NCBI GenBank assembly: GCA_030638825.1
Contig: DAOWDU010000011.1
Coordinates: 5,675-69,674, forward strand
DNA from: a bacterium
GTDB lineage: Bacteria > Patescibacteriota > Minisyncoccia > JAHIHE01 > JAGLIN01
Reading direction: 5' to 3'
Length of the DNA stretch: 64,000 bases
Shown here: one piece after another, positions 16,898 through 36,073 of the stretch
How the letters are laid out: the number at the start of each line of letters is the position of its first letter
How positions within the stretch are numbered: the stretch's first letter is position 1
The notes under the pieces: model-generated
The model's input: the letters and a program-made list of their open reading frames with translations, nothing else
What the model was told of the DNA's origin: nothing
The model's database searches: none
Translations under genes and position numbers: made by a program

Positions 16898-16914
16898 ATG
16901 CTAATTTTATACAA

Positions 16915-18118: not shown

Positions 18119-18136
18119 ATTGATTCATATTAATGT

Positions 18137-18523
18137 TTACATGCTTTTCTTTAATACTTCTCTGATTTTTTCAATAACTTCTGACGGTGTAAAATGAGCC
18201 TTGATTATATAACTGTCAGCCCCTAAATCAAATCCTTTTTCTACATTTTCTTTCTGCCCCAAATTTGTTAAAAGCACGACAGGGATTCCTTTTAGCTCTA
18301 TGTTTTTTTTAATTATTTTCAAAACATCAAAGCCGTCCATTTTTGGCATAACAACATCCAAAAGAATTATATCTGGTTTTTGTTTTTCTAGCATCTTAAT
18401 GCCTATTATTCCATCCTTTGCAGTCGCAACTTCAAAGTTTTCTGATTCTAGTTTAATCTTATACATGTCAGATATGTAAGAATCATCTTCTATTATTAAA
18501 ACCGATGTTTTGTCTTTGATCAT
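18137..18523 (-). CDS. Single-domain response regulator (CheY-like receiver)
   Basis: Receiver residues DD...D (IIEDDSY, LLDVVMP), T/S and K. Confidence 0.85.
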   Translation of the reverse strand: MIKDKTSVLIIEDDSYISDMYKIKLESENFEVATAKDGIIGIKMLEKQKPDIILLDVVMPKMDGFDVLKIIKKNIELKGIPVVLLTNLGQKENVEKGFDLGADSYIIKAHFTPSEVIEKIREVLKKSM

Positions 18524-18524
18524 A

Positions 18525-18599
18525 TTGTTAAATTGTTAAATTGTTAAATTGTTAAATTGTTATGCGTGGCATAGCAATATTTTTATGCCATGCATAACA
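18525..18599. repeat. Octamer tandem repeat (attgttaa) x about 5, then a 15-bp inverted repeat (gttatgcgtggcata / tatgccatgcataac). It lies directly upstream of the response-regulator ATG.
   Basis: The tandem array spans 18525-18563, and the inverted repeat spans 18559-18573 / 18585-18599. The 21-mer atgcataacaatttaacaat recurs at 45370-45395. Confidence 0.7.
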
Positions 18600-18623
18600 A
18601 TTTAACAATGTAGCAATTTAATT

Positions 18624-20384: not shown

Positions 20385-20402
20385 GTGTCATACTAAAATA
20401 TT

Positions 20403-21506
20403 TTATTCTTCAAATCCTCTTAAAGCCAAGCCAACGGCGACGGAAAAACTTGTTGATATCTGGTTTAGCTTTTTGGACAATACTTTGTCGTAGGCAATAT
20501 TTTTCCAAGGGCTGGCGATTTCTACTGCAATAGAAAGTTCTTTGGAGAAATAACTAATTAATCCAGGCAGGCTCGCTGAGCTTCCTGATATAATTATTTT
20601 GTTGATATTTTTCTTATTTCTATTGAAATAAGAATCGTTTACTTTTTTAATTTCCGATGTAAGTATATTGACAATCGGCAGCGCGATTTCAGAGACCTTT
20701 TTTTGCGGGCCATCAAAAGTTAAACCGACATCTCTTTTTAAGGCTTCCGCTCTGTTAAAATCAATGTTAAATCCATGGCTTATCATTTTAGTTATCTCTT
20801 CTCCTCCAGCTCCTGGCGTGCTATGACTTTCTAAAACAGAGCCGTTTTTGACAACTATTATGCTCGTTGTTTTGTTTCCAATGTCAACAATCATAGAAGC
20901 TTCCTTATTGTTTCCAACCAACGATCTTGCTAACGAAAATGATTCAGTTTCCAAAGCAACTAACCTCAAGTCTGTTTGTTTGATAATGTCAGTATATTTC
21001 TTCGTTATTTCTCTTGGAATAGCAACGAGCAACACAGTTATTTTTTTATTTTGTTTTAAGCTGGTGTCTTGCTTGTCAAGATTTTCTTCTGCGGTTTCTT
21101 TGTTTACAATGCTCCAATCAAAAACAACTTCGTCTAATGGCAATGGTATATACTGTCTGGCTTCATAATTAACAGCTTCGCTAATCTCATTTTCCGGAAT
21201 GTCCGGCAATTCCATAATGGATGAAAAAGCAGAGGATATTGGGATTGAAATGGTTGTCTCTTTGGCTGTTATCCCCGCTTCGTTGATGATTTTTAGCAAG
21301 TCGTTTAATATTTCAGTATCTGACATTTTTACATCTGCCGCTCTTCTTCCGTTGCTTAAAATTTCCATATATTCCTTCGTTTCAGTGTAAGCGTAATTTT
21401 CCAATTTTATTTCTTTGCCATTTGATCCAAGCTGGACCATTCTTATTCCCGTGGTTCCTATATCAATTCCCAAAGAACTGCAGGGTTTCTTTTTAAATAA
21501 ATCCAT
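20403..21506 (-). CDS. pilM: Type IV pilus assembly protein PilM (actin-like ATPase)
   Basis: LGIDIGTTGIRMVQL N-terminal phosphate-1 motif, and length. Confidence 0.8.
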   Translation of the reverse strand: MDLFKKKPCSSLGIDIGTTGIRMVQLGSNGKEIKLENYAYTETKEYMEILSNGRRAADVKMSDTEILNDLLKIINEAGITAKETTISIPISSAFSSIMELPDIPENEISEAVNYEARQYIPLPLDEVVFDWSIVNKETAEENLDKQDTSLKQNKKITVLLVAIPREITKKYTDIIKQTDLRLVALETESFSLARSLVGNNKEASMIVDIGNKTTSIIVVKNGSVLESHSTPGAGGEEITKMISHGFNIDFNRAEALKRDVGLTFDGPQKKVSEIALPIVNILTSEIKKVNDSYFNRNKKNINKIIISGSSASLPGLISYFSKELSIAVEIASPWKNIAYDKVLSKKLNQISTSFSVAVGLALRGFEE

Positions 21507-21532: not shown

Positions 21533-22078
21533 TTATTCTTCGTTTCTCACCTTAACTTTCATTGAAGCGTTCTTTTCTATTTTCGGAAGTTTAACCGTAA
21601 GAATGCCGTTTTTGATTGTCGCTTCAACTCCTTCTGTTTTAATATCGCTTGGCAAAATAATTGAACGCGAAAAATTCCCCCAAAAACATTCTTGATAATA
21701 ATAATCGTCAGCTACGACATTGTCAGGATTTTCTCTCTTTCCTTTGATAGTCACCATATCGCTCGTAACGGAAATATCTAAGTTTTCAGGTCGGACGCCG
21801 CCAATAATTGATTTTACAACAATGAGTTCTTTTGTTTTGTAAACATCTACTGTCAACTGGCCTTCTTCGTTAATATCATCTTCTTTTCCTGAAAGCCATT
21901 CCTTGTCAATTTTTTTGTTTTCAGAATTATTCTCGTCAGTGTCTCCGTTGTCCGCTTCATTCTCGTTTGTTGTTTCTGTTTCTTTTTCTTCATCAGAATC
22001 AGAACTAACAATTCTGTTTAAAAATGATTTTTTTTGTTTTGTCATATTATTCATATTAACATTTAAATATATAAACAT
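21533..22078 (-). CDS. Hsp20/alpha-crystallin small heat-shock protein with an acidic N-terminal extension
   Basis: Alpha-crystallin domain: LTVDVYKTKELIVVKSIIGGVRPENLDISV ... GILTVKLPK. Confidence 0.75.
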   Translation of the reverse strand: MFIYLNVNMNNMTKQKKSFLNRIVSSDSDEEKETETTNENEADNGDTDENNSENKKIDKEWLSGKEDDINEEGQLTVDVYKTKELIVVKSIIGGVRPENLDISVTSDMVTIKGKRENPDNVVADDYYYQECFWGNFSRSIILPSDIKTEGVEATIKNGILTVKLPKIEKNASMKVKVRNEE

Positions 22079-22164
22079 TTAAACACAAATTTTAAAATAT
22101 AAAAAGCGACTGCTTGTTTATATGTTTACATGTTTACACGATTACATTATACCATTTTTAAAAA

Positions 22165-25100
22165 TTACAACAAGGACTTTATTTTTTCTTTCAGTTTTTT
22201 TATTTTTTTTTCGCTTTCCATAAATTTTTCTCTTTCTTTTTCAACAATTTCCCGCGGAGCATTGCCGACAAAATCATCATTGCCAAGTTTTGTTTTTATC
22301 TGGAAAATATATTTTTCTATATTTTCTATTTTTTTTTCTAAATTCTTTTTTTCTTTTTCTTTGTCAATTATTCCCTCTAAATAAATTTCAATATCGCCAA
22401 CAACTAAATAAACCGCGTCTTTGATTTTATCGTCCTTTTCTTTTATTTCTAATTTATCAATTCCAGTTCTGAGATTTTTGATTAAATGCGCTTGTGATTT
22501 GATAAATTCTTTTTTATTTCCAGCGTAAATTACAGCTTCAATTTTTTTACCTGGCTCAACCTTATATTCCGCGCGCGCGTTGCGAATGGCTTTAATAATA
22601 TTTTGAATTATTTCAAAATCGCGGGCTGTTGTGATTGTAGGGAACGGGCATGCCTGTTCCCTACAATCACGGTCAGCCCACTTTTCCACCATCAGTAAAT
22701 TTTCACTGTCTAAATTCTTCCAAATTTCTTCTGTCACAAACGGAATAAAAGGGTGAAATAAAATTAAAACTTGTTTTAAAATATAATTTAAAATCTCATT
22801 TTTATTTTTTTCAATTTTAGAAATTTCAATATACCAGTCAGCGAAATCGTTCCAGGTAAATTCTTTTATTTTTTCGCCAGCTTGCGAAAATTTATAATTA
22901 TTCAAATCATCTGTGACTTCTTTAGTTAAATTGTTTAGATTATTTAAGATCCATTTATCTGCTAATGTGGCATCAGAAGCTGGGCTTCCAATTGGAAGCC
23001 CAGCTTCTTTAGTATTATCAATATTCATAATAATATACCGTGAAACATTCCACAACTTATTCACAAAATTCCGATACCCTTCAACTTTTTCTTCATACAT
23101 CTTAATGTCATTTCCTGGACTGGATCCGATAATCATACTCAATCTCAAAGCGTCCGTTCCGTATTTCTCGATCATCTCGATCGGATCAATCCCATTTCCA
23201 AGAGACTTGCTCATTTTCTTTCCCTGCTTATCTCGTACCATTCCATGCAAATAAACATTTTCAAACGGGACTTCGCCAAGCGTATAAGTCGTCATCAAAA
23301 TCATTCTTGCCACCCAAAAAAACAAAATATCATAACCCGTTTCCATCACGCTTGTTGGATGAAACTTTTTCAAATCTGGACTATTCGCAACCCAATCTTC
23401 AAAAGTTTTATATTTCTCGTGATCCTGATTTAATAAAGTTGAAAATGTCCAAAGACCTGAGGAGAACCAGGTGTCTAGAGTGTCGGTGTCCTGTGTCCAG
23501 TTTTTTCCTTCTGGTGGATTAGTCCCAATATATATTTCTTGATTTTTATATTTCTTACCTTTCGGTATCATAGTATATACTATGGAACTATTATCAAATT
23601 TATTATTTAATTCATATTTCCATCCCGCTTGCCACTCTTTTGTTTTTCTCCAATCTTCATTAATCGCTTGCTCCCAAGTTCTATTTTTTAAAATTACATC
23701 TAGCGCTAACTGTGGAGCTTTGTGCGCAACAATAGCAATTTTTTTACCTTGATATTTATCTATTAAATCATTAAGAAAATCCCTGATTCTTTTTTCAACA
23801 TCTTTATAGCTCTCGCCCTTTGGAAATGGTTTGTCTATTACATTTTTTTCTATCACCAAAATTTCAGACGCACCAGCTTGTGTTAAATCTCCATAATCAC
23901 ACTCACGCAATCTTTCATCCTGAATGATTTTTACACCTCTATCACTAAACGTTAGGCTTGCAGAATCAACTGCTCGTTTCAAATCTGAACAAAATACAAT
24001 ATCAAATTTCTCATTTTCAATTGTTTTCTTTAAATCTTTTGACTGCTGAATTCCTAATTTTGATAATTTTACATCATAATGACCAGACGCTTTATTCTTC
24101 TCATTATCAATCGTCGTCCCATGAACAAAATAAGTAATATCAATTCCTGATTCCTGATTCCTGATTCCTGATTCATTTTTATACCAAACCGGAATCCGAT
24201 GCCCAAACCATAACTGACGGGAAATACACCAATCATGCAAATTTTCCATCCAATTATGATATGTTTTTTCAAATCTTTCAGGAATGATTTCAATTTTCTT
24301 GTCATTTTTTTCATCAGCTTTATTCACCACTTCCAAAGCAATTTCCTTCAAGGACTTATTTTGAAAATATTTATTTCCTCCAATTGTAATTTTCTTGTCA
24401 ACGGCGACAAACCATTGTTTTGATGGCAAAGGTTCAATCGGGGTATCACAGCGGTAGCAAATGCTTAAACTTTGATCTACTTCTTCAACTTTTTCAATTA
24501 AATTATTTTTCTCAAAATACTGGACTATTTTTTCTCGCGCTTCTAAAACTGTTAGTCCTTCATAATCTTTTCCTGCGTTCTCATTCATCTTCCCGTCTTC
24601 GCCAATAATTTTTATTTTCTCCAAATCATTTTTCTCTGCCATTTCCCAGTCAGTCATACTGTGCGCGGGAGTTACTCCTAATGCCCCAGTTCCAAACTTT
24701 ATTTCAACTTCTCTATCTGAAATAATTTTAATTTTATGTTTGCCATTTCCTAAATTTATTTCAAAAACTTTGCCAATATACTTTTTATATCTCTCATCTT
24801 TTGGATTAACAGCAACCGCTGTATCGCCTAACTTTGTTTCTGGTCTTGTTGTCGCGATTGTGATTGGAAAGTCTTTGTCATATTTAAAATAATACAGTTT
24901 CCCTTTTTGCTCTTCGTGTTCAACTTCATCATCCGCTAAAGTTGATTCGCATCTTGGGCACCAGTTGACAATTCTGTCTCCTCTATATATTAATTTATCA
25001 TTGAACATTTTTGTAAATACTTCCCTCACTGCGCGTGATAATCCATCATCAAGTGTGTATCTTTCCCTTGACCAATCGCAAGAAGAACCCATTTTTCTGG

Positions 25101-25512
25101 TTTGATTTTTAATTGTACTTTTTGAATTTTCTACATATTCATTTACTCGCTCCAGAAATTTCTCTCTGCCTAAATCATATTTCGTCTTCCCCTCTTTTGC
25201 GATTATCTTTTCTACTTTCGTCTGTGTCGCGATTGAAGCGTGGTCTGTTCCAGGAAGCCATAAAGTATTTTTTCCTTTCATTCTATTATACCTAATCATC
25301 AAATCCTGATAAGCAAGCATTGAAGCATGTCCTAAATGCAAAACTCCCGTCGCATTCGGCGGCGGCATTGAGATTGAAAAGTTTTGTAGGGAACAGGTAT
25401 GCCTGTTCCCTACAAAACTATTCGGATTAAAAAAACCAGACTTTTCCCAAGTCTTATAAATTTTATCTTCCACCTCTTGAGGATCATATGCTTTTGGAAT
25501 TTCTTTTTTCAT
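22165..25512 (-). CDS. valS: Valyl-tRNA synthetase with inserted domains
   Basis: HIGH (PNATGVLHLGHA), KMSKS and the anticodon-binding/coiled-coil C-terminus. 1115 aa, longer than typical ValRS because of insertions. Confidence 0.95.
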   Translation of the reverse strand: MKKEIPKAYDPQEVEDKIYKTWEKSGFFNPNSFVGNRHTCSLQNFSISMPPPNATGVLHLGHASMLAYQDLMIRYNRMKGKNTLWLPGTDHASIATQTKVEKIIAKEGKTKYDLGREKFLERVNEYVENSKSTIKNQTRKMGSSCDWSRERYTLDDGLSRAVREVFTKMFNDKLIYRGDRIVNWCPRCESTLADDEVEHEEQKGKLYYFKYDKDFPITIATTRPETKLGDTAVAVNPKDERYKKYIGKVFEINLGNGKHKIKIISDREVEIKFGTGALGVTPAHSMTDWEMAEKNDLEKIKIIGEDGKMNENAGKDYEGLTVLEAREKIVQYFEKNNLIEKVEEVDQSLSICYRCDTPIEPLPSKQWFVAVDKKITIGGNKYFQNKSLKEIALEVVNKADEKNDKKIEIIPERFEKTYHNWMENLHDWCISRQLWFGHRIPVWYKNESGIRNQESGIDITYFVHGTTIDNEKNKASGHYDVKLSKLGIQQSKDLKKTIENEKFDIVFCSDLKRAVDSASLTFSDRGVKIIQDERLRECDYGDLTQAGASEILVIEKNVIDKPFPKGESYKDVEKRIRDFLNDLIDKYQGKKIAIVAHKAPQLALDVILKNRTWEQAINEDWRKTKEWQAGWKYELNNKFDNSSIVYTMIPKGKKYKNQEIYIGTNPPEGKNWTQDTDTLDTWFSSGLWTFSTLLNQDHEKYKTFEDWVANSPDLKKFHPTSVMETGYDILFFWVARMILMTTYTLGEVPFENVYLHGMVRDKQGKKMSKSLGNGIDPIEMIEKYGTDALRLSMIIGSSPGNDIKMYEEKVEGYRNFVNKLWNVSRYIIMNIDNTKEAGLPIGSPASDATLADKWILNNLNNLTKEVTDDLNNYKFSQAGEKIKEFTWNDFADWYIEISKIEKNKNEILNYILKQVLILFHPFIPFVTEEIWKNLDSENLLMVEKWADRDCREQACPFPTITTARDFEIIQNIIKAIRNARAEYKVEPGKKIEAVIYAGNKKEFIKSQAHLIKNLRTGIDKLEIKEKDDKIKDAVYLVVGDIEIYLEGIIDKEKEKKNLEKKIENIEKYIFQIKTKLGNDDFVGNAPREIVEKEREKFMESEKKIKKLKEKIKSLL
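22631..22670. repeat. Family-A palindrome (gtgattGTAGGGAACgGGCATGCCTGTTCCCTACaatcac), in frame in valS
   Basis: 40-bp palindrome with one central mismatch. It encodes ...ACPFPTITT... in valS. Confidence 0.8.
22975..23008. repeat. Family-B palindrome (aGAAGCTGGGCTTCCAATTGGAAGCCCAGCTTCt), in frame in valS
   Basis: Perfect 34-bp palindrome. It encodes EAGLPIGSPAS. Confidence 0.8.
24143..24175. repeat. Heptamer tandem repeat (attcctg) x4 inside valS
   Basis: Encodes ESGIRNQESGI at the start of the ValRS insertion. Confidence 0.8.
25380..25419. repeat. Family-A palindrome (agttttGTAGGGAACAGGtATGCCTGTTCCCTACaaaact), in frame near the valS N-terminus
   Basis: It encodes the VGNRHTCSLQ insertion between the conserved N-terminal segment and the HIGH region. 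Confidence 0.8.
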
Positions 25513-25633: not shown

Positions 25634-28030
25634 ATGAACTTGAAATCAAGAAGCGTTTTTAAAAATATTCCTGGTGTGTTTTTGTTGTTGTTTGTCGTTG
25701 TCGCTGTTTTTATTCCATTAGGAGAAGCAAAAGCATTAGATCTTATTTCTTTTGATATTTTTAGCAGTTTAACGGAATGGACTGCTAAATTGTTAAAAGG
25801 AGATAGCGCAGTTATGACGACTATTTATTGGTTTGCATATCGGGTAATAAGTCTGGGCTTGTATTTCACGACGGTGTTGGTCTATTTCGGTTCCTGGCTG
25901 GTTGATGTTTTTCTTGACGAAGATATTTACGCGAGTGTTCTTAATATGAACGATTCAACTTCAGCGGTCGCTATCGGCTGGAGAACTGTTCGAGATGCTT
26001 GCAACACCTTTTTTATTTTATTTCTTCTGGTAATCGCTTTTTCCACAATCTTGCGAATTCAAGCGTATAGCGCCAAAAGTTTGCTTCCTAAATTGATAAT
26101 CTCTCTCTTTTTAATAAACTTCAGCGCAGTTATCGCAATGATGGTTATTGATCTGGGACAGGTTTTTATGTTTGAAATAAAGACCTGGATGGGAGCGGGA
26201 GGTTTTTCTGCTCCTAGCGGCGCCGGCAGTCCGCTGACTACAATCGTGGACTATTTTCATAACGAATATGGCTTGCACGAACCGCCGCCTTCAGGGGCAT
26301 ATTTAATGTCAGATGTCGTTGGCGTTATGTTTGCGGTTGCTTATTCCGCTATTCTCGGTCTTCTCTATATTATGCTGGCGCTGTTCCTAATGGTTCGGAT
26401 TATAGTTTTCGTAATCCTGATCATAATTTCTCCGTTTGCTTTTTTCAGTATGATCTTGCCAGGAATGAGGACATACACTTCCCAATGGTGGCAGAGTTTG
26501 GTAAGCCACGCCATCTTCGGTCCCGTTTTTCTCTTCTTCATTTTTCTGGCTAGCAAAATGGCGCAATCAATGCAGACATTTAATTCTACTGTTCCTGAAC
26601 CTGCGGATATGGAGCCCTTGTCTTACATAATCGCAAAATTAATCCCCCATATAGTCGCAATGGGAATGCTCATGGCGGCAATTCCCGTCACCCAAAAATT
26701 AGGCGTAGCCGGCGCCAACAAATTCATCGGCGGCGCGGCAGGGATTGGGAAGATTGGAATTGGAGCGGTGGCAGGAGCTAAGTTGGCGGGTGGGTTTGGG
26801 AAGAAGGTTGGGGCTCCTATAACAAGAAGAAGTGGTGTGCCTGATAAGATGAGAAGGGGAACTGATAATATTAAAGGTAGTATCGCTGAAAATAAATGGG
26901 CGCAAAAGGCTGGTATAAGCAAGATTATCTTAAGGGGAGATTCCAATAAATTTAGCAGTCAAAGAGATCAGGTTGAAAAAGAGAAAAAAGGATGGATTAA
27001 CAGTGCACAAAAAGATAATCTTTATGGAGAACTTAAAAATTCTAAGGGGAAGTCTAGCGCTGAAATTGCGGCAATTATTGAAAGAATGTCTGAAAAGAAA
27101 ATGCTTAATGAAAAAGATCTTAAAAGTCACAAGATTGAAGGTCAAACTTTGTCTAATATACTTTCAAGAGCAAAACCTGCTTTGGATGCAGACAAGCTTA
27201 AGGAGTCTATGCCACAATGGGCAGCGATAGTTGAAGCGGGACCGGGAAAAGGAAAGGAAAATATAATAAAAGGAAGAACCAAAGAAATTACAACTGAAAT
27301 GGTTGAAGAAAATAAGTTGAGTTCTTTGAATAATGCCGCTCTTGAGAGCGCTGATGTTATGAAGACAATATTTGATCAACATGATGATCCTGATAAATGG
27401 CTTTCTTCACAAAGTACAGCAAGACAGGATTCAGCAAATATAGGTTTGGAAAACTTGCTTAAAAAATACCAGAAAGAGATACACAACGAAGGCGTTGGAG
27501 GTGTAGATTTTAACAATGTAAATAATGCTGCTATCGGACATGCAAACCCTATAGGAAATACGGGAATGGACGGAGATAAACTCAGAAAAGAAATTGATAG
27601 CATACAAAAATCATTAGCCAAGAATGATAAAAATGGACATGAGAAACTCAATAGACCGACGATTCTTGCTAATGGAGAAATAGATATTGACCTTACTACT
27701 GGAAGAATAGATTTTGCTGGAGCGCCCATTCCAGTAGCAGGAACGCCAGAACATACAGCATGGGAAAGTAGAAGAAAAGAAACTGCAGAAGGAATGAAAG
27801 GTGAAACCGGATTCAAATATAAGAGTAGAGAATTTTATGAGGATATGGGGCAATATTTAGCTAAGGCTCAACTTGACACATTAAGAAAATCTGGGAACAC
27901 TGAACAAATGAGAGCAGCGAAAGATTCTATTCTTTCGCGTGGGGCACGTGTTGGTCATGTGAGTACCGCTTCTCCCGAAATTCGTAGCTATGTTAGTGTT
28001 GGAGGTAATACTTACTATGAAAACTTGTAA
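25634..28030 (+). CDS. Large polytopic membrane protein, VirB6/ConG-like (T4SS channel component), with a Gly-rich linker and a hydrophilic C-terminal half
   Basis: Signal peptide, then an extracytoplasmic segment and 6-8 TM helices (W..VRDACNTFFILFLLVIAF pattern). Gly-rich GVAGANKFIGGAAGIGKIGIGAVAGAKLAGG. Confidence 0.45.
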   Translation: MNLKSRSVFKNIPGVFLLLFVVVAVFIPLGEAKALDLISFDIFSSLTEWTAKLLKGDSAVMTTIYWFAYRVISLGLYFTTVLVYFGSWLVDVFLDEDIYASVLNMNDSTSAVAIGWRTVRDACNTFFILFLLVIAFSTILRIQAYSAKSLLPKLIISLFLINFSAVIAMMVIDLGQVFMFEIKTWMGAGGFSAPSGAGSPLTTIVDYFHNEYGLHEPPPSGAYLMSDVVGVMFAVAYSAILGLLYIMLALFLMVRIIVFVILIIISPFAFFSMILPGMRTYTSQWWQSLVSHAIFGPVFLFFIFLASKMAQSMQTFNSTVPEPADMEPLSYIIAKLIPHIVAMGMLMAAIPVTQKLGVAGANKFIGGAAGIGKIGIGAVAGAKLAGGFGKKVGAPITRRSGVPDKMRRGTDNIKGSIAENKWAQKAGISKIILRGDSNKFSSQRDQVEKEKKGWINSAQKDNLYGELKNSKGKSSAEIAAIIERMSEKKMLNEKDLKSHKIEGQTLSNILSRAKPALDADKLKESMPQWAAIVEAGPGKGKENIIKGRTKEITTEMVEENKLSSLNNAALESADVMKTIFDQHDDPDKWLSSQSTARQDSANIGLENLLKKYQKEIHNEGVGGVDFNNVNNAAIGHANPIGNTGMDGDKLRKEIDSIQKSLAKNDKNGHEKLNRPTILANGEIDIDLTTGRIDFAGAPIPVAGTPEHTAWESRRKETAEGMKGETGFKYKSREFYEDMGQYLAKAQLDTLRKSGNTEQMRAAKDSILSRGARVGHVSTASPEIRSYVSVGGNTYYENL

Positions 28031-28051
28031 ATTTAGAAAATCTATAGCATT

Positions 28052-28825
28052 ATGAAAGAAATATATATAGAAAGAATTAAAAAATTACCAGATTTTGTTC
28101 AAGATTCACTTGGCGAAAGTGCTGATGTGGCCAATATTAAAATAAGGGAAAATTATATATTTGATGAAGAAAAATTACTTTCTCTTTCAGATATCAAAGC
28201 TGAGATAATATTAAAAGATATAAGTATAGAAGAAATAAATAATAGAATTCAAAAAGAACTAAACCTTGATAATGAAGCTTCTAACAAAATAACCCTTATC
28301 ATTCTCACCGAAATTTTTTATCCGATTAAAAGTTATTTCCCGGGGATAGAAGATGAAATCCTGAAACTGGGCGGGGAAGTTCCAAAAATAAAGCCGAAGA
28401 AAATAAGCGAGCAGTTTTTGAAAAGAGAAGAAGAAATGGGAAGGATGAAAGAGGAAGAAAAAAGGAGAGAAGAAGAGAGAATAAAAGACACAATTATTAA
28501 AAAGCCGATTAAAGATTTGATAAAAGAATTTGCGGAAGTTGGCGAACAGCAGATTGGAAGCCAGAAAGCGATTATTTTGAAAGAGATGCCTGTGCCGATG
28601 AAGCCGCTCGTGAAGTATTGGATGAAGGATTATTTAGAAAAAATGGGACATTATGAGCACTCCAATATTGACCGTGTTAAATATGTCTATCATGATAAAA
28701 ATACCCGCAAAATGAATGACGAAGAAAGACGGCAATTGAATTTGATTCTGAAATCGCTGGATGAAGGGATTTTGCTGGCTTATTCTACGCGACTTAAAAA
28801 AATAGATTTTAGTAAAATGGATTAA
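28052..28825 (+). CDS. Hypothetical protein (257 aa) within the T4SS-like cluster
   Basis: ORF with a charged coiled-coil central region and no known motif. Confidence 0.45.
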   Translation: MKEIYIERIKKLPDFVQDSLGESADVANIKIRENYIFDEEKLLSLSDIKAEIILKDISIEEINNRIQKELNLDNEASNKITLIILTEIFYPIKSYFPGIEDEILKLGGEVPKIKPKKISEQFLKREEEMGRMKEEEKRREEERIKDTIIKKPIKDLIKEFAEVGEQQIGSQKAIILKEMPVPMKPLVKYWMKDYLEKMGHYEHSNIDRVKYVYHDKNTRKMNDEERRQLNLILKSLDEGILLAYSTRLKKIDFSKMD

Positions 28826-28972
28826 GAAATAATTTCTAATTTTCAATTTCTAATTTCTATTAAATTTTCAAGGAATTAAGTTTCAAATAATATTTTGAAA
28901 ACAAGAATTTAGAACTTGAAGAATTTAGAACTTTAATAAAAATTAGAAATTAGAAATTGAAAATTTAAATTC

Positions 28973-29422
28973 ATGCAATACGGTGTTCCACAATTTATAA
29001 ATGTAGAGGATAAAATAGTTGGTCCTTTTACAGGGAAGCAAACGGTCTGCCTTATTGTCGGCGGCGGGATTTTGATGCTGTTCTTTTCAATTTTTGATTT
29101 TGTCTTTTTCGCGTTTGCGGCCATAATAATTATTCCTCTAACCCTGGCGTTTGCTTTTTGGAAACCAAAAGGGATTTCTGTTTTCAGGTTGATTTTAAAC
29201 AGAGTAAACTTTGGCGTTTCTAATCATCTTTATGTTTGGAGGAGAGAGCCTGATGACAGGATGTTTAAGGCAGCGCAAAAAGTAAAATCATCCAAAAAAA
29301 TAGCTGAAAAAAATGTTTCCAGAAATAGGATCAGAGAGCTAGCCTGGCTTCTTGATACAAGCACCTCTGTAAATCTTCCCTACGAAGTTAAGACAAGAGC
29401 GAGAGAAGGAATTAGAAAATAA
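28973..29422 (+). CDS. PrgI-family / VirB3-like small membrane protein
   Basis: VPQFINVEDKIVGPFTGKQTVCLIVGGGILMLFF matches the PrgI pattern (K..GPFT.RQ), followed by two TM helices. Confidence 0.55.
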   Translation: MQYGVPQFINVEDKIVGPFTGKQTVCLIVGGGILMLFFSIFDFVFFAFAAIIIIPLTLAFAFWKPKGISVFRLILNRVNFGVSNHLYVWRREPDDRMFKAAQKVKSSKKIAEKNVSRNRIRELAWLLDTSTSVNLPYEVKTRAREGIRK

Positions 29423-29490
29423 TGTGGAGTGCGTTGTCAGTATTGGTGTGTTGTTGTTTAGTGGAGCTCAAAGAATTGAAATAAGTTCTT

Positions 29491-29545
29491 AATTTCAAAA
29501 TCCAAATTATGTCAAATTATTCCAAATCAAATCCAAATTTAAAAA
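29491..29545. repeat. Left inverted repeat (ccaaat-rich) flanking the four-helix-bundle gene
   Basis: aatttcaaaatccaaattatgtcaaattattccaaatcaaatccaaattt. It is the reverse-complement partner of 29927-29995 and a homolog of 30751-30800. Confidence 0.7.
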
Positions 29546-29922
29546 CTCAAAAGATTTATGATCTAGAAGAAAGAACAGCTATATTTGGAGAAAATGTAGT
29601 AGAGTTCTGTAAATCTTTACCTCAAAATAATATAAGCATTCCATTGCTTAGGCAGGTAATCAGATCAGGAACAAGTGTAGGAGCAAATTATTGCGAAGCA
29701 GATGGAGCAGAATCAGGAAAAGATTTTAAGCATAAGATTGCCATTTGTAAAAAGGAATCAAAAGAAACAAAGCATTGGTTCCGAATGATTGCCAAAGCTC
29801 TTCCAGATAAAGCTAATGAATGTCGAAAACTATGGAAAGAAGCTCAAGAATTAACTTTAATTTTTTCTTCTATTTTAAATCCAAAAAAGAAAGACAAAGA
29901 CAAAATAAGCGATAAACAATGA
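29509..29922 (+). CDS. Four-helix-bundle protein of the 23S rRNA intervening-sequence protein family (the DGR Avd fold family)
   Basis: LEERT...GANYCEA...ICKKESKETKHWFRM matches the S23/IVS four-helix-bundle family signature (KE..ET.YWL). Confidence 0.7.
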   Translation: MSNYSKSNPNLKTQKIYDLEERTAIFGENVVEFCKSLPQNNISIPLLRQVIRSGTSVGANYCEADGAESGKDFKHKIAICKKESKETKHWFRMIAKALPDKANECRKLWKEAQELTLIFSSILNPKKKDKDKISDKQ

Positions 29923-29926
29923 GTAA

Positions 29927-29995
29927 TTTTAGCATTTGATATTTGAATTTGATTTGGAATAATTTGAGCTTTGGAATAATTTGGAATTTATAAAC
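29927..29995. repeat. Right inverted repeat (atttgg-rich) flanking the four-helix-bundle gene
   Basis: ttttagcatttgatatttgaatttgatttggaataatttgagctttggaataatttggaattt, about 90% identical to 30806-30875. Confidence 0.7.
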
Positions 29996-30064
29996 CTATT
30001 TTAGCAAAATAAATTATCATTCACTCTTTATAATTTTTTATTTTCAACCTCTAACCCTAACATC

Positions 30065-30739
30065 ATGTCTACTCCCCTCAAACAAAAAAAAATAGGTCTA
30101 AGTTCCCAAAAATATCTGGAGATCGCCGAGATAAAAGATGGCGTTGTTGTGATGAAAAATACAAGCCTGAAAGCTGTTTTGATGGTTTCTTCCATAAACT
30201 TTGCGTTGAAATCCATTGACGAGCAAGACGCTATCATTTATCATTTTCAGAGTTTTTTGAACTCCATTGATTTTTCGGTCCAAATAGTTATAAATTCCAG
30301 ACAATTAAATCTGGACAATTATTTGCGCGCGCTTAAAGATCAAGAGAAAAAACAAAGCAACGAGCTTTTACGAATGCAAACTTCCAGTTATATAGAATAT
30401 ATTCAGGGACTTATTAAGATGGCCAATATCGTAAGCAAAACATTTTATATCGTTATTCCTTTCGCGCCTTCGGAGTCCAGAGGCGACGGACTTATGTCAA
30501 AAATGAAAGCAGTGGCTAATCCAGCCAAACTTATGTCAGGCAGAGAATCGTTTGAAAAATATAAAGATCAACTGCTGCAAAGAGTTGACCATGTTATAGA
30601 AAATTTAAGTGGAGCAGGGTTGCGAATGACCATGCTCAATACACAGGAGCTGATAGAGCTTTATTACAATTTATACAATCCCGAAATTTCAGAAAAAAAA
30701 GGTTTAGCGGATGTGGAGGAATTGGATCTGGCTCGTTAA
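30065..30739 (+). CDS. VirB4 N-terminal-domain-like protein (possible detached N-terminal part of the T4SS ATPase)
   Basis: KYLEIAEIKDGVVVMKNTSLKAVLMVSSINF resembles the VirB4/TrbE N-terminal pattern (..tKdGsl.avl.v.g.d). No TM segment. Confidence 0.4.
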   Translation: MSTPLKQKKIGLSSQKYLEIAEIKDGVVVMKNTSLKAVLMVSSINFALKSIDEQDAIIYHFQSFLNSIDFSVQIVINSRQLNLDNYLRALKDQEKKQSNELLRMQTSSYIEYIQGLIKMANIVSKTFYIVIPFAPSESRGDGLMSKMKAVANPAKLMSGRESFEKYKDQLLQRVDHVIENLSGAGLRMTMLNTQELIELYYNLYNPEISEKKGLADVEELDLAR

Positions 30740-30750
30740 ATTAAAAATTA

Positions 30751-30875
30751 AAATTGTTCCAAATTACTCCAAATCAAATCTAAAATCCAAATCTTAAAAA
30801 TAAATTTTAGTATTTGAAATTTGGATTTGATTTGGAATAATTTGAGCTTTGGAACAATTTGGATTTTTATAGATT
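30751..30875. mobile_element. Solo copy of the ccaaat/atttgg inverted-repeat pair forming a ~120-bp hairpin (MITE-like), between the two VirB4-like ORFs
   Basis: L2 (30751-30800) and R2 (30806-30875) are adjacent. They are homologous to L1 and R1, which flank the gene at 29509-29922. Confidence 0.6.
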
Positions 30876-30897
30876 AAATTATTATAATAAAAAATAT

Positions 30898-32739
30898 ATG
30901 TCTTTACTGGATAAAATTCTACCAAACAAAACTCAATCCAAAACAACCATAGATCCTTCCCAAAAGTCCGCTCTTTTGGAGTCGGAAAAAATATATCAAA
31001 GAGGATTGGCGACGGTCAAAGATATTATCGCTCCCGCGGCTTTTAAAATTGAGTCGGATCATGTAATGATTAACAAAAAAATGGCCTCAACCTTTTTTGT
31101 TTACGCTTATCCGAGGTTTTTGCAAACAAACTGGTTTTCTCCGATTATAAACCTGGACACGACTTTTGATATTGCAATGTTTATTCATCCTCAAAGCACC
31201 GCTGAGATTTTAAGGAATTTGCGGAAGATTATAACCCAAATCCAATCGCAAATTTCTATTAACGAAGAAAAGGGGTTGGTAAGAGACCCAATTTTGGAAA
31301 CTGCTTTTCAGGATGTTGAGAATTTAAGAGATGATTTGCAGCAGGGAGTTGAGCATTTTTTTCAGTTCGGTCTTTATATCACAATATATGGAGATACAAA
31401 AGAAGAACTAAGAAAAATTGAGACTCAAATAGAAGCAATTTTAGAATCAAAACTTATTTATATCAAACCAGCCATTATGCAAATGGAGGCGGGATTTAAT
31501 TCAACGCTTCCGCTCGGATCTGATAAACTGATGATCGGAAATAATATGAACACCTCTCCCCTTTCCACTACTTTTCCTTTTGTATCCAGCGACTTAACTT
31601 CCAATCAGGGGATATTATATGGGATTAACAGGCACAATAACAGTTTGGTTCTGTTTGACAGATTTTCTATGGAAAATGCGAATATGGTTATTTTCGCCAA
31701 ATCTGGCGCTGGAAAAAGTTACGCTGTGAAACTTGAAATTTTACGAAGTTTAATGATGGACACTGAAGTTATTATTATTGATCCTGAAGATGAATATAAA
31801 CATCTTTGTGAAACTACAGGAGGAACTTTCTTGAGAATTTCTCTGTCGTCAAAACATCATATCAATCCGTTTGACTTGCCGACCGCTATGGAAGATGAAA
31901 CTCCAGCTGATGTTTTGCGAACCGCTATTTCAAATATTTCAGGACTTTTAAAAGTTATGCTTGGAAAAATCTCCACGGAAGAAGATTCAATTTTAGACAG
32001 AGCGATCGCGGAAACTTATGCTATTAAAGATATCACTCCCGAAGCTGATTTTACTAATTTAGAAATGCCGACAATGACAGACTTGCAGATGGTTTTAGAA
32101 AATATGAAGGGCGCGGAAAGTTTATCTATCAGAATTAAAAAATATACAGAAGGAACTTTCGCTGGGTTTTTAAATCACAAGACAAACATTAGTGTTGATA
32201 CAGGAATGATTGTTTTCAATATCAGAGATATGGAAGATGAATTAAGGCCAGTAGCGATGTATTTAATCCTGCATTTTATTTGGACATTGATTAGAACAAA
32301 AACGAAAAAAAGAATGATGGTTATTGACGAAGCCTGGTGGATGATGCAGCACGAGGATGCCGCTTCGTTTCTTTTTGGAATTGCGAAAAGATGCCGAAAG
32401 TATTATTTAGGTCTGACGACTATTACGCAGGATGTGACTGATTTTATGGGCTCTAGATTTGGCAAGCCGATTGTGACGAATTCCTCAATTCAGCTTTTGC
32501 TCAAACAGTCCCCCGCGGCGATTAAAGTTATCGTGGACACATTTTATCTGACAGACGAAGAAAAGTTTTTGCTCTTGGAAAGCAATGTCGGGGAAGGAAT
32601 TTTCTTCGCTGGCCCGAAGCGCGCGGCGATCAAAGTTGTCGCTTCTTATTCCGAAGATCAAATTATAACTTCTGACCCGGCGCAATTGTTGGAAATTGAG
32701 AGGGCGAAGAAGGAATTAAGAGAGATAGCGGGAGAGTAG
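30898..32739 (+). CDS. VirB4/TrbE/CagE-family T4SS ATPase (C-terminal ATPase part). The start is reassigned to the ATG at 30898.
   Basis: Walker A FAKSGAGKSYAVK, Walker B MMVIDEAWWMM and RK...TQ. The ORF-track start at 30859 is a TTG inside the repeat element, and a tataat lies 9 nt before the ATG at 30898. Confidence 0.7.
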   Translation: MSLLDKILPNKTQSKTTIDPSQKSALLESEKIYQRGLATVKDIIAPAAFKIESDHVMINKKMASTFFVYAYPRFLQTNWFSPIINLDTTFDIAMFIHPQSTAEILRNLRKIITQIQSQISINEEKGLVRDPILETAFQDVENLRDDLQQGVEHFFQFGLYITIYGDTKEELRKIETQIEAILESKLIYIKPAIMQMEAGFNSTLPLGSDKLMIGNNMNTSPLSTTFPFVSSDLTSNQGILYGINRHNNSLVLFDRFSMENANMVIFAKSGAGKSYAVKLEILRSLMMDTEVIIIDPEDEYKHLCETTGGTFLRISLSSKHHINPFDLPTAMEDETPADVLRTAISNISGLLKVMLGKISTEEDSILDRAIAETYAIKDITPEADFTNLEMPTMTDLQMVLENMKGAESLSIRIKKYTEGTFAGFLNHKTNISVDTGMIVFNIRDMEDELRPVAMYLILHFIWTLIRTKTKKRMMVIDEAWWMMQHEDAASFLFGIAKRCRKYYLGLTTITQDVTDFMGSRFGKPIVTNSSIQLLLKQSPAAIKVIVDTFYLTDEEKFLLLESNVGEGIFFAGPKRAAIKVVASYSEDQIITSDPAQLLEIERAKKELREIAGE

Positions 32740-32798
32740 AAATGAGGGTGCCATAGTCTCCGCAGAGCTGTGGCACCGTCCGTTAGAATGTCCGTTAT

Positions 32799-33725
32799 TT
32801 GTCCGTTAAAAATTATTTTATGGATAATATAAAAAATGATAAAACAGAAAAAGAGATAGAAGAAAAAGTTTCGGAGAAATTGAAGAAGGATATAAAAAAA
32901 TTGCTATCAGATAAAGAAGGAAGAACGCCATCGGAGAGTCTAGGAAAGGAGTGGAGAAGAATACTATCAGGAGGAACTGAAAAAAATGAAGCGTTTAAAA
33001 AACATAGTGAAAATTATAATGATAGACAAAGTAGTAGAAAACATAGAAGAGCTGGTAGTAAAAAAAGTCTCCCGCCCTTGAAAGATTTAAGAGAAAAAGA
33101 TAAAGAAGAAAAAAAAGCAAAAGAAAAGTTTCAAAATAAACTTAGTAAGATTAATCGACAATCTGTTAAGAATATTAAGAGAAATGTTAAGGAAAGATCA
33201 AGGAAAATTGCGGAAAGAAGAAAAGTAGCTTTTAAAAAAAAGCTTAAGGAGAAGATGAAGAAAAAACTTACGATGAATGCAAAACAAGGGAAAAGCATTC
33301 ATATGACTTGCCTGTTTGCATTTATGATGTTCCTTGCTTTTTTTAATGATGTCTTGTTGGATATACTTGTTGCGATGACTGTTGAAATTATTGCGTTGGC
33401 AATTTCGCTAACAGGAATAGGAGCCGCGGTAGGATTGCCTATTATCGCTTTTGTAGAATCTGCGGGAAATGTTATTGATGCTGCAACAGGCATAATCCTT
33501 ACAATTTTCTCATTATATATAGGAGGGCATACCAAGGCTGGTATGAAAAAAGGTTTAAGATCTTTGGCTAAATATGTAGGAGGTTTTATTATTGAGCTGA
33601 TTCCTATTTTAAATTTGTTTGTAAGTTGGATGGTGGTTGTTGCATCAGACTGGCTTGCAGTTAGGAAAAGAGCGGAAAAAGCGGAAGCAATGGATGAGGA
33701 AATTAATCAGATAAGCGGAAGATAA
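32799..33725 (+). CDS. Membrane protein with a Lys-rich N-terminal region and a C-terminal 4-TM domain
   Basis: The N-terminal 170 aa are highly basic and the C-terminus has 4 hydrophobic helices. Confidence 0.45.
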   Translation: MSVKNYFMDNIKNDKTEKEIEEKVSEKLKKDIKKLLSDKEGRTPSESLGKEWRRILSGGTEKNEAFKKHSENYNDRQSSRKHRRAGSKKSLPPLKDLREKDKEEKKAKEKFQNKLSKINRQSVKNIKRNVKERSRKIAERRKVAFKKKLKEKMKKKLTMNAKQGKSIHMTCLFAFMMFLAFFNDVLLDILVAMTVEIIALAISLTGIGAAVGLPIIAFVESAGNVIDAATGIILTIFSLYIGGHTKAGMKKGLRSLAKYVGGFIIELIPILNLFVSWMVVVASDWLAVRKRAEKAEAMDEEINQISGR

Positions 33726-33801
33726 AATTTTCAAAATTTGATAGTTTATTTCAAAAGTGCTATTATTGAGATAGTGAAGTTTAGATTTATAAATAAAAAA
33801 C

Positions 33802-34158
33802 ATGGAAACAAAAAAAGAAATAACAATAGATGAATTAGCGGGAATGATGCAACGGGGGTTTGTAGCGCTTGAAAATAAAATGGATAGCAAGTTTGATAAA
33901 TTAGATAGCAAGTTTGACAGGCTTGATAATAAAGTTAATGGATTAAAGAGCGAGATGGATAGAAAGTTTGACAGAGTTGATGAAAGGTTTGATCAAGTTT
34001 TAACTAATCAGGATCATATTTTGGGAAGATTGGAAAATTTAGAAACGGACAACACGGCAGGCGCAGAAGCTTCTCGGCGGCAGGAAGATAAATTAGAGGA
34101 TTACGAAAAAAGAATTATTGTTACAGAGAAAAAATTAGGAATTGGCGCGGCAATTTAA
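33802..34158 (+). CDS. Small coiled-coil protein, paralog of the gene at 50731-51018
   Basis: The shared N-terminal block TIDELAGMMQRGF aligns with TIDDLAIMIGKGF. Internal KFD(K/R)LD repeats. Confidence 0.5.
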   Translation: METKKEITIDELAGMMQRGFVALENKMDSKFDKLDSKFDRLDNKVNGLKSEMDRKFDRVDERFDQVLTNQDHILGRLENLETDNTAGAEASRRQEDKLEDYEKRIIVTEKKLGIGAAI

Positions 34159-34173
34159 ATAACCCTTAAACTT

Positions 34174-35391
34174 ATGCAAACAAAAAAAACTACTTTTATA
34201 ATAGCTTTTATCTCGGCGATATTTGTTAGCGTGAATTTTATGGTTGCCAAAGCGTATGTGCCGTTAGTCAGGCTTCCTGGATTGCCGACAGAGGGGGAGA
34301 TTAATTTATCGCAATACATTATTGGATTATATAATTTTTTATTAAGCATCGTGGGAATAGTCGCTGTAATGATGCTGATTATCGGGGGGATGAAATATAT
34401 AACCGCGGCTGGAAACGCTTCAATTATATCTGACGCTAAGGACACAATTTCAAACGCCTTATTCGGTTTATTGCTGGCGCTTTTGTCCTGGGTGATCGTG
34501 AGCACAATAAACCCTGATGTTTTATACATAAAAAATCCTGGCGCCGATTTTACAGAGGTACTTAAAGACGATCTCGGCGCATGCGGTTATTATGATCCTG
34601 ATCCTGCTATCATCGCTCCTGCTCCTAATTGTGTTTGTAAAGACAGCGCAGTTGCTTTTGCTAGTATAACTAGTCAAGAAGCATGTCAGGATATTTGCGT
34701 CAATGCTTGTGGAACGACAGAAGCTTCTCCTTGCATCGGAGGGACTTCAAATAATCCAATAAATGGCGTGTGTCATTGTGTTGATGGCAATAAAGAAGTA
34801 GATGTTGATTATGGAAATGCCCCAATAGACGCAAAATGTAATGAGGTTTGTAGCAATCCAAGTTTTGCTGAGGATGGGAAATATCATGGAGTAAAAACTG
34901 ATCTTGATATACTTAAATTAAATGATGACAATGAAATGATTCCTATTTCAAGAATAGATGAAGATACCTTTACTTTAAAAACGAATAAAGATTATTTTTT
35001 TGATTTTTCCGATTCCTATGATTGCAGAGGTGAAATAGTTAGTTTTGCGATTGAGTTTAACGGAGGGAAGCCAACTATTTTCGATGCTCCCGACAGATGG
35101 TGCTGTATGATAAATAATCCTGCTTGTCCATCAACTTGGGGAGAACTTTGTAATGCAGGACTTCTTTTTAAAACTATGTGTGACGATCCTACCTGTAGTA
35201 TTGATTTAAAACTATGTACTTGTTTTGAACCCAATGAAGATCGTTCAAATTATCCAATATACAAAGTAAGCTATAGTAGTGATGGGCTAAAAAAACTTTG
35301 GACAGGAATAACAAATAGAACTTCAGATGGAGGTATTGTTAGGTGTTACGAGGATGCTGAAAAGCTTTTTAGTGTAAGAGTTGAAAATTAA
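34174..35391 (+). CDS. Secreted/membrane protein with a VirB2/TrbC-like pilin N-terminus and a Cys-rich C-terminal extracellular domain
   Basis: Signal peptide, then two hydrophobic helices (IVGIVAVMMLIIGGMKYITAAG ... LFGLLLALLSWVIVSTINPD). The C-terminal 270 aa contain more than 20 Cys. Confidence 0.45.
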   Translation: MQTKKTTFIIAFISAIFVSVNFMVAKAYVPLVRLPGLPTEGEINLSQYIIGLYNFLLSIVGIVAVMMLIIGGMKYITAAGNASIISDAKDTISNALFGLLLALLSWVIVSTINPDVLYIKNPGADFTEVLKDDLGACGYYDPDPAIIAPAPNCVCKDSAVAFASITSQEACQDICVNACGTTEASPCIGGTSNNPINGVCHCVDGNKEVDVDYGNAPIDAKCNEVCSNPSFAEDGKYHGVKTDLDILKLNDDNEMIPISRIDEDTFTLKTNKDYFFDFSDSYDCRGEIVSFAIEFNGGKPTIFDAPDRWCCMINNPACPSTWGELCNAGLLFKTMCDDPTCSIDLKLCTCFEPNEDRSNYPIYKVSYSSDGLKKLWTGITNRTSDGGIVRCYEDAEKLFSVRVEN

Positions 35392-35434: not shown

Positions 35435-36073
35435 TCATTCGAGATAAAACCATATTTTTTTTATCTCACAGGAAGTTTCCTTTAGAGCGATAGAAGAAGG
35501 ATCTGCCGATTGGCGTTCTATTAAATAGAAATCTCCTTCAATATCCTGACTTTGTTTTCCGATATCGAAACAATCCAAACGATCGGAACGGTCAGACAAA
35601 AAAGAATATTCAATCTCCCTGTTCCATGGTTCTCCTCTGTAAGCTATTACTTTAACCCTATATCTTACGGAGTTATAGCGCACATTATTGAACCTTTCGT
35701 CGTCATTTTTAACAATAGAGAATTTCAATATATTATTCTCTATCCCTACATTGACCAAATTCATATCTGGTCTTTTTTCTGATGATATTTCCTGAGGGAG
35801 ATTTGAAACAGGATAATATATTCCTGTTTTTCCTATTTCCTCTGTTTCTGGCTCTTCGGTTCCTACTGGAACAGCATCTGTCTCAGTATCAGTACCACCT
35901 ATACCAGTATCGGTAGCAGTGATAATTTCGCTGATTCCTATTACTCCTGGTCCAAATACTGCTGCGGTTAGTGTTATCGCTAAGAAAGCGACAAACCATG
36001 GAGCGACTGGCCATTCTCTTTTTTCGTGCTTGTTTTCTCCCTGTACAGGAGTCGTCTTTTCTTTTTCATACAT
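35435..36073 (-). CDS. Hypothetical membrane-anchored protein
   Basis: TM helix PWFVAFLAITLTAAVF followed by a T/E-rich linker. Confidence 0.45.
   Translation of the reverse strand: MYEKEKTTPVQGENKHEKREWPVAPWFVAFLAITLTAAVFGPGVIGISEIITATDTGIGGTDTETDAVPVGTEEPETEEIGKTGIYYPVSNLPQEISSEKRPDMNLVNVGIENNILKFSIVKNDDERFNNVRYNSVRYRVKVIAYRGEPWNREIEYSFLSDRSDRLDCFDIGKQSQDIEGDFYLIERQSADPSSIALKETSCEIKKIWFYLE

Follow-up and report, generated by a model that had tools for sequence, protein, structure and literature searches.

The 64,000-nucleotide stretch of bacterial DNA analyzed here (contig DAOWDU010000011.1, positions 5,675 to 69,674; hereafter the window) carries a gene cluster at window positions 25634-35391 that very probably encodes a vertically inherited, chromosomal type IV secretion system (T4SS) of the Patescibacteria clade, related to the conjugation machines of monoderm bacteria of the mating-pair-formation type FATA (MPF-FATA) and serving host contact or exchange. 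The initial annotation had described a T4SS-like cluster of nine co-directional plus-strand genes; all nine open reading frames (ORFs) lie where it had placed them, and the T4SS-like assignment stands up in tests of profile, fold and synteny and agrees with published accounts of Patescibacteria T4SSs (PMC12102498, PMC10633639). One of the nine, the 137-aa four-helix-bundle ORF in fourth place, is part of an inserted cassette and no T4SS component. The gene set, the VirB4 encoded by two ORFs, the pilin, and the missing type IV coupling protein (T4CP) and relaxase belong to a system already described in Patescibacteria, and at the system level the locus adds nothing new. Its less ordinary features are the fusion of the pilin to an ectodomain and the presence of cassettes resembling the intervening sequences (IVS) of rRNA genes.

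Core components of the secretion system

The VirB4 ATPase (613 aa from the ATG at 30898; 30898..32739, + strand) is of the CD1110, or MPF-FATA, type. It matches NF045971 (CD1110 family) at 357.5 bits against a cut-off of 325, over CD1110 positions 175-729, and among structures in the PDB it matches the VirB4 C-domain 4ag5 (E 5e-45) as well as residues 300-735 of TrwK. The motifs by which the protein had been recognized in the initial annotation, Walker A (AKSGAGKS), Walker B (MMVIDEA) and RK..TQ, can be made out in the translated sequence. Alignments with the VirB4 of relatives begin at residue 1 of the ATG-30898 form; an exact-sequence look-up of the ATG and TTG forms returned no record.

Upstream of the ATPase gene lies a free-standing, TrsD-like VirB4 N-terminal domain (224 aa; 30065..30739, +), which matches only the N-terminal part of VirB4 models: positions 106-233 of NF045975 (E 7e-13), positions 11-118 of CD1110, and the TrsD model NF041427 (E 2.5e-6). 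A phmmer search of the PDB with this protein gave no match. When the 224-aa and 613-aa sequences are joined, they produce one collinear alignment to TIGR00929 (VirB4_CagE), in which residues 23-783 cover model positions 18-724 of 792, so that the resemblance to a VirB4 N-terminal domain noticed in the initial annotation is upheld.

Relatives of VirB4 were sought in one genome per species, and 80 of the 166 confirmed relatives, 94% down to 55% identical in VirB4, were kept and fetched as loci (numbered from L001). Nearly all carry Patescibacteria labels, including Paceibacteria, Moranbacteria, Doudnabacteria, Falkowbacteria, Saccharibacteria-labelled genomes and others; the few automated Gammaproteobacteria, Verrucomicrobiia or generic "bacterium" labels among them are probably attached to mislabelled metagenome-assembled genomes (MAGs). 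A tblastn comparison of the nine proteins with the 80 loci recovered the order PrgI, N-domain, VirB4 essentially everywhere, and the conservation of gene order that had been proposed as a check is thus found across the relatives.

PrgI, the VirB3-like member of this trio, is a protein of 149 aa with two transmembrane segments (28973..29422, +) that matches PF12666 at 29.3 bits (cut-off 27), and about 70 related loci have its gene directly ahead of the one for the VirB4 N-domain; family and position both agree with the earlier assignment. Curated cut-offs are passed by PrgI, by VirB4 in the CD1110 family and by the T4SS pilin described below, in the kind of profile search that the initial annotation had suggested as a check.

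The first gene of the cluster encodes a polytopic membrane protein of 798 aa (25634..28030, +), which begins with a signal-peptide-like N-terminus and comprises a helical membrane domain and a hydrophilic C-terminal half, each of ~400 aa. The protein itself has no match in Pfam or NCBIfam; the threshold of PF04610 (TrbL/VirB6) is passed by its homologues P0140, which is 44% identical, and P0176. Because a profile of the family, searched against PDB sequences, yielded only low-complexity coiled-coil noise, a fold search was used instead. An AlphaFold2 (AF2) model of residues 1-420, with a predicted local distance difference test score (pLDDT) of 80, was compared by Foldseek with 350,542 PDB chains, and the three best matches are to TrwI/VirB6 of R388 (E about 0.02, probability 0.99-1.0, TM-score 0.38-0.53), the next PDB match following at E 0.29. 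A homologous gene is found upstream of PrgI in most loci with sequence reaching that far. The 798-aa protein, called VirB6/ConG-like in the initial annotation, is accepted here as a putative extended VirB6-like protein, and extended VirB6 proteins are a recognized class in the T4SS literature.

The pilin and its ectodomain

The last gene of the cluster encodes a long T4SS pilin of 405 aa (34174..35391, +), which matches PF18895 (T4SS_pilin) at 33 bits, above the cut-off of 26.6, and is 100% identical to KAQ87_01955 of a Candidatus Pacebacteria MAG. It had been called a VirB2/TrbC-like pilin; the pilin family and the two-helix hairpin stand, but the TrbC/VirB2 model PF04956 finds no match at E <= 0.1. 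In the AF2 model (mean pLDDT 74.7, and 80-94 over most of the beta domain), a signal peptide (residues 1-27, cleaved between AKA and Y) precedes helices at 45-77 and 82-112, after which a low-confidence linker of about 20 residues leads to a Cys-rich region (residues 134-235) and then to a PKD-like beta-sandwich from ~236-240 to 405. This is in substance the layout predicted earlier, with a signal peptide, two hydrophobic helices and a C-terminal domain with more than 20 cysteines: there are 21, all after residue 130, and 14 of them are invariant among 39 homologues. So many conserved cysteines fit an extracellular, disulfide-bonded ectodomain.

The best PDB folds for the beta-sandwich are the PKD domains of the clostridial collagenases ColG and ColH, at weak scores (E about 1e-3, TM-score 0.66 on the target), and phmmer aligns residues 256-299 with PKD-array proteins. 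When 1.84 billion cluster representatives were searched exhaustively with residues 130-405, phmmer gave 31 matches, most of them pilins of ~400 aa aligned from about residue 130 on; the others are large proteins hit repeatedly by residues 256-299, and the three that were scanned are PKD arrays. The domain is named PKD-like because the Pfam PKD models miss the pilin itself. The ectodomain is thus modeled as a Cys-rich stalk followed by a divergent PKD-like beta-sandwich.

Mean pairwise identity falls from 76% in the pilin core to 36% in the Cys-rich region and 29% in the PKD-like region, and the ectodomain evolves much faster than the core, which retains many invariant Gly, Pro and Asn positions and an N-terminal PLVRxPGLP motif. 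A profile of the core recognizes one pilin ORF in the window. Long pilins (364-542 aa) occur downstream of virB4 in every close relative with sequence reaching that far, the copy in L004 being truncated where its contig stops, while several more distant relatives have short pilins of 141-179 aa. The ectodomain is typical of this clade but, with 31 clusters among the 1.84 billion representatives, rare overall. No description of a pilin-ectodomain fusion was found in the literature on PF18895, and the published survey treats these pilins simply as VirB2-like and detected no adhesins (PMC12102498). In one large clade, then, the pilin itself carries a variable, adhesin-like surface domain, which is a concrete candidate for host recognition.

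Comparison with known systems

With the T4SS of the Patescibacteria clade (Quinonero-Coronel et al. 2025, PMC12102498), as in S. epibionticum ML1 (SEML1_0006-0019; Wang et al. 2023, PMC10633639), the locus shares a TrsD-like protein beside a VirB4 of the FATA/CD1110 type, PrgI/VirB3, a VirB2-like pilin of PF18895 and, indirectly identified, VirB6. Both are chromosomal, lack a relaxase and a nearby T4CP, and have KsgA and other housekeeping genes as neighbors; PF18895 pilins near virB4, the absence of a relaxase and the frequent proximity of KsgA are published traits of Patescibacteria (PMC12102498, PMC10633639). The locus differs in having one long pilin with an ectodomain rather than an array of short divergent pilins, in having two IVS-like hairpin elements inserted between its genes, and in that no VirB1-like hydrolase is recognized here, whereas the survey links VirB1 to virB4 in Paceibacteria (PMC12102498).

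Among monoderm systems, trsC-trsD-trsE of the staphylococcal plasmids pGO1 and pSK41, an MPF-FATA subclass, likewise combines a VirB3-like protein, the small VirB4-N-terminus homologue TrsD and a shortened VirB4. Those systems are, however, plasmid-borne and conjugative, with their own relaxase and T4CP and with neither a VirB2 pilin nor a recognizable VirB6, and the TrsD model NF041427 scores only 27.5 bits here against a cut-off of 200. The T4SS of Mycoplasma integrative and conjugative elements (ICEs), with Mbov_0397 as VirB4 and Mbov_0395 as a pilin-like protein, offers a second comparison: both VirB4 parts match NF045975 strongly, at 47 and 280 bits, and the pilin weakly matches the Mbov_0395 model NF045849 (E 4e-4). 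The scores for both models are below the equivalog cut-offs, and the Mycoplasma elements are mobile and have integration and transfer functions of their own. These matches hint that the pilin may have come with a monoderm-type system rather than from diderm T4SSs.

The VirB systems of R388 and Agrobacterium (TrwI/VirB6, TrwK/VirB4, VirB2) share with the locus the VirB6 fold, the VirB4 ATPase domain and a pilin built of a signal peptide and two hydrophobic helices. In contrast to them, the locus has no outer-membrane core (VirB7, 9, 10) and no VirB5, VirB8, VirB11 or VirD4, its VirB4 is split, and its pilin has about 280 extra residues.

Proposed role in host contact

Roughly 50 ORFs of the window, including all of at least 200 aa, were scanned against Pfam and NCBIfam, and none matches a T4CP, relaxase, VirB8, VirB1 or reverse-transcriptase family; none of the unannotated ORFs has a plausible P-loop NTPase layout. 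A 447-aa ORF containing ANKGSGKS was considered as a T4CP and rejected, the motif lying N-terminal to the transmembrane segments, inside a low-complexity stretch, in a layout that is not that of a T4CP. The earlier statement that VirD4 and relaxase are absent therefore holds for the full 64 kb. The pairing of relaxase and T4CP that defines a conjugative T4SS is lacking at the locus, and for this reason conjugation is disfavored.

In the mechanism proposed here, PrgI would anchor the TrsD-VirB4 ATPase complex at the membrane, VirB6 would provide an assembly platform or channel, and VirB4 would extract the Sec-dependent, processed pilin from the membrane and polymerize it. The ectodomain comes after the second helix, which places it on the side of the processed N-terminus; the Cys-rich stalk and PKD-like domain would therefore reside outside the cell, on the outer face of any filament, and could bind the host cell surface. 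Such an apparatus would function in host contact and macromolecule exchange rather than conjugation, as proposed for Saccharibacteria, for which protein export or uptake from the host has been suggested in the literature. Few functions have been demonstrated to be indispensable to epibiotic Patescibacteria, and the T4SS genes count among them: S. epibionticum depends on its T4SS and pilin genes to grow as an epibiont, and Saccharibacteria require both type IV pili and T4SSs. It is the essentiality of the homologues, the lack of relaxase and T4CP, and the topology of the ectodomain that favor a host-contact apparatus with an adhesin-bearing pilin.

Several points weigh against this reading. A gene for a T4CP might lie in another part of the genome, and no VirB8-like or VirB1-like component is recognized in the cluster, three of whose ORFs (257, 308 and 118 aa) have no assigned function. 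The VirB6 assignment is indirect, depending on weak fold scores and transitive Pfam matches, and the Pfam PKD models PF00801 and PF18911 have no direct match to the pilin at E <= 0.1. Polymerization of a pilin with about 280 extra residues is a prediction. Finally, the role ascribed to the T4SS in Paceibacteria comes by analogy with Saccharibacteria, for which the substrate and the direction of transport are themselves proposals.

A serious alternative, if the less probable one, is that the 405-aa protein does not polymerize and that its VirB2-like hairpin is a mere anchor for a cell-surface PKD-like adhesin, with no pilus being formed. This is the only ORF with a pilin domain in the window and in close relatives, so every subunit of a filament would have to carry a bulky domain of ~30 kDa, and Gram-positive T4SSs normally operate without pili according to the literature. 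However, the strong identity of the pilin core and its invariant positions go beyond what a simple anchor would need, and the flexible-looking, low-confidence linker separates this core from the ectodomain. The termini of F-type pilins, moreover, face outward.

If the pilin is polymerized, a more speculative and rather doubtful picture can be drawn, in which a sole pilin fused to a fast-diversifying stalk and PKD-like domain would build a "bottle-brush" monoderm T4SS pilus bearing an adhesin on each subunit, and this ectodomain, instead of a separate adhesin or a pilin array, would set host specificity; a separate part of the same conjecture is that the cassettes described below are selfish elements of the IVS type colonizing mRNA spacers as well as rRNA.

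Less probable again is a functional machine devoted to DNA import, of the Ced or competence type, rather than to adhesion or export. Weak similarity to CedB (E 3.6e-12) and CedD (E 2.9e-6) speaks for it, as does a type IV pilus cluster 4 kb upstream; from the literature, T4SS loci in the class ABY1 co-occur with comF, recG and radA, and these organisms are unable to make nucleotides. Yet the similarities are far below the cut-offs of the archaeal Ced models (CedB 45.7 bits against 700, CedD 26.2 against 600), and no CedA-like match was recognized. A review also notes that natural transformation is not an essential nucleotide route in S. epibionticum and that the essentiality of the type IV pilus and T4SS is not explicable by interaction with ComEC.

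Chromosomal setting and inheritance

The T4SS genes form a plus-strand island between minus-strand neighbors, valyl-tRNA synthetase (ValRS) upstream and a 212-aa ORF downstream, in a window of low GC content (about 0.29-0.41) from a genome of the Paceibacteria type. Housekeeping genes in the window include those for IF-2, NAD-dependent ligase (LigA), ribosomal protein L19, ValRS, polynucleotide phosphorylase (PNPase), UvrD, KsgA and GyrA, and RNase P RNA and tRNAs are encoded there as well. PNPase and a downstream 563-aa gene are syntenic in close relatives. The housekeeping flanks (ValRS, PNPase, KsgA, GyrA, LigA and IF-2), together with the synteny of PNPase, point to a chromosomal core locus, which by all appearances has been inherited vertically and is no mobile element of recent arrival.

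It is very improbable that the cluster is what remains of a decaying integrated conjugative element, with the split VirB4 and the missing T4CP and relaxase as signs of pseudogenization. Such a remnant might explain why relaxase, T4CP, VirB8 and VirB1 are all absent from the locus, why selfish-looking cassettes lie between the genes, and why the GC content of the VirB6 gene is slightly raised (0.41 against about 0.33). But all ORFs are intact, and in the closest relatives (L001-L017) TrsD is 72-82% and VirB4 77-94% identical; gene order is kept across the phylum between housekeeping flanks of conserved synteny, no integrase is adjacent, and the homologous genes are essential in S. epibionticum.

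The two-part VirB4

Reading frames were located around both VirB4 matches in each related locus (n=77), a set that includes Doudnabacteria, Falkowbacteria and Saccharibacteria-labelled genomes. All 77 encode the N-domain and the ATPase in two distinct ORFs, and in none are they fused. In distant relatives the gap between the stop of the N-domain and the start of VirB4 is -4 to about 30 nt, which is typical of coupled translation, and long spacers of 200-540 nt are seen only in close relatives of the window; in other close relatives (L002, L007, L010, L011, L012 and L015) the same spacer measures 18-75 nt and has no hairpin. With 2,272 homologues, most of them adjoining virB4, TrsD is the commonest Patescibacteria T4SS component (PMC12102498, PMC10633639); it is remotely homologous to the VirB4 N-terminus and is listed as essential in S. 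epibionticum.

Because the two ORFs are separate in every locus and adjoin or overlap in distant relatives, the two-ORF VirB4 is the ancestral, conserved native state of the whole clade and no disruption, the hairpin having been inserted recently into an existing spacer; this corrects a tempting misreading. The suggestion in the initial annotation that a single VirB4 gene was split by insertion of the hairpin at 30742-30869, which does lie exactly between the N-domain and ATPase ORFs, retains practically no probability, since none of the 77 loci is fused and most have no insert and a stop-to-start distance of -4 to 30 nt, a separate TrsD has been published for more than 2,000 Patescibacteria assemblies, and the hairpin is absent from the close relatives L002, L007 and L010-L012.

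Cassettes and hairpins in the intergenic spacers

The inserted cassette (29489..30013, +) occupies the spacer between PrgI and the TrsD-like gene. Its 137-aa ORF (29509-29922) belongs to the four-helix-bundle, or 23S_rRNA_IVP, family, matching PF05635 at 47.9 bits and TIGR02436 at 70.6 bits, above cut-off, and is enclosed by inverted-repeat arms at 29489-29552 and 29925-30013 (repeats D8, D20 and I18) that pair in the minimum free energy (MFE) and centroid folds (z = -4.3). In L002, the next-closest relative whose sequence extends upstream, this spacer lacks the cassette.

The solo hairpin between the VirB4 parts (30742..30869; repeats D20, D8 and I17), noted in the initial annotation, is a real structure (MFE -44.2 kcal/mol, z = -7.7 relative to shuffles). 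It consists of two cassette arms joined directly without an ORF, the left arm being 78% and the right arm 82% identical to those of 29489-30013, and it is the ORF-less form of the four-helix-bundle cassette. Both elements are, by comparison with related loci, later insertions into intergenic spacers. The same bracketing recurs around the PF05635-family genes at L008:4325-4780, L018:828-1261, L023:7838-8302 and L034:6668-7121, where inverted repeats of 38-45 nt lie 344-380 nt apart and the arm sequences differ between loci, so that every four-helix-bundle gene met, in the window and in these four loci, is enclosed by inverted repeats.

The copy in L008 (PF05635, 122 bits) resides in the spacer between TrsD and VirB4, the site of the solo hairpin in the window, and this spacer is an insertion hot spot. 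Other structured inserts are found in it at L003:585-905, L005:9645-9940, L013:9608-10000, L004:9608-10000 and L009:9458-10000; inserts of close relatives are unrelated to the cassette, as in hairpins with TTGTCATTGCGAG...GCAATGACAA.

An ORF of the PF05635 family enclosed by stem-forming inverted repeats is also the arrangement of the 23S rRNA IVS with its S23p ORF in Coxiella burnetii (PMC4990558), and 23S rRNA IVS elements are regarded as selfish (PMC4990558). There the IVS is in rRNA, whereas the cassettes here are in mRNA intergenic spacers of a T4SS operon; by analogy, they look like IVS-type elements living in mRNA spacers. A different role for the four-helix-bundle protein, as the accessory protein (Avd) of a diversity-generating retroelement acting on the pilin, was rejected because no scanned ORF has a reverse-transcriptase match and a template/variable repeat pair is absent from the pilin gene.

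Both copies have, in their right arm, a promoter-like TTGAtA-16-AATAAT preceded by a TG (29936-29963 and 30814-30841, +), pointing at the TrsD-like gene and at VirB4, respectively; these are consensus matches only, in AT-rich DNA. In a terminator and promoter scan, counts were near the shuffled expectation.

A further hairpin, made of AT-rich 7-nt periodic units, fills the spacer upstream of PrgI (28829..28974, inverted repeat I14; MFE -34.8 kcal/mol, z = -5.9). Long AT-rich hairpins of 7-8-nt periodic units (CATATAAA, TTGTTAAA, AATTGAAA) make up many intergenic regions of the window, at 10356-10508, 16977-17045, 18536-18621, 22027-22160, 28829-28974, 53391-53443, 58145-58274 and 59863-59957, and several of their families recur along it. 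A family of 32-nt perfect palindromes (D15, TTGTAGGGAACAGGCATGCCTGTTCCCTACAA) has three copies, all inside coding regions: two in the ValRS ORF (22635-22666 and 25384-25415) and one in the ORF at 4755-5609 (5187-5218).

Other genes of the cluster and its surroundings

Three further proteins are encoded within the cluster. The 257-aa protein (28052..28825, +) is soluble, with no family match, no transmembrane segment and no P-loop; counterparts 46-63% identical occupy the same position in L002-L016, and a gene for it between VirB6 and PrgI is confined to the close clade. The 308-aa protein (32799..33725, +), which has no significant family match, combines a Lys/Glu-rich N-terminal half with a C-terminal half containing four predicted transmembrane segments, and its conservation is patchy (L001, L009 and L013). 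The 118-aa coiled-coil protein (33802..34158, +) has only coiled-coil-type matches, below threshold, and a counterpart in L001 only. Just beyond the pilin gene, the bitopic 212-aa ORF (35435-36073, -) was considered as a VirB8 analogue and rejected; it has no family match and is not kept beside the pilin in relatives.

The type IV pilus cluster (14399-21506, -), about 4 kb upstream of the T4SS, encodes a prepilin peptidase, two N-methyl pilins, a PilT-like ATPase, a response regulator, PilB and PilM. The two N-methyl pilins are paralogues, with 77% identity over a 211-nt repeat.

At about 47200-47700, beside the RNase P RNA gene (47216-47684), gene orientation and GC skew both change sign, and this switch may mark an origin or terminus of replication, although no dnaA was recognized in the window. 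A tyrosine recombinase gene (60012-61016, -; Phage_integrase, E 6.5e-41) is separated by about 100 nt from a tRNA gene (61118-61190) and may encode XerC/D or mark the edge of an integrated element. ValRS (22165-25512, -; 1115 aa) has a histidine-phosphatase domain (PF00300, residues 464-601, E 1.9e-30) inserted in its catalytic domain, with VHG in place of the usual RHG motif.

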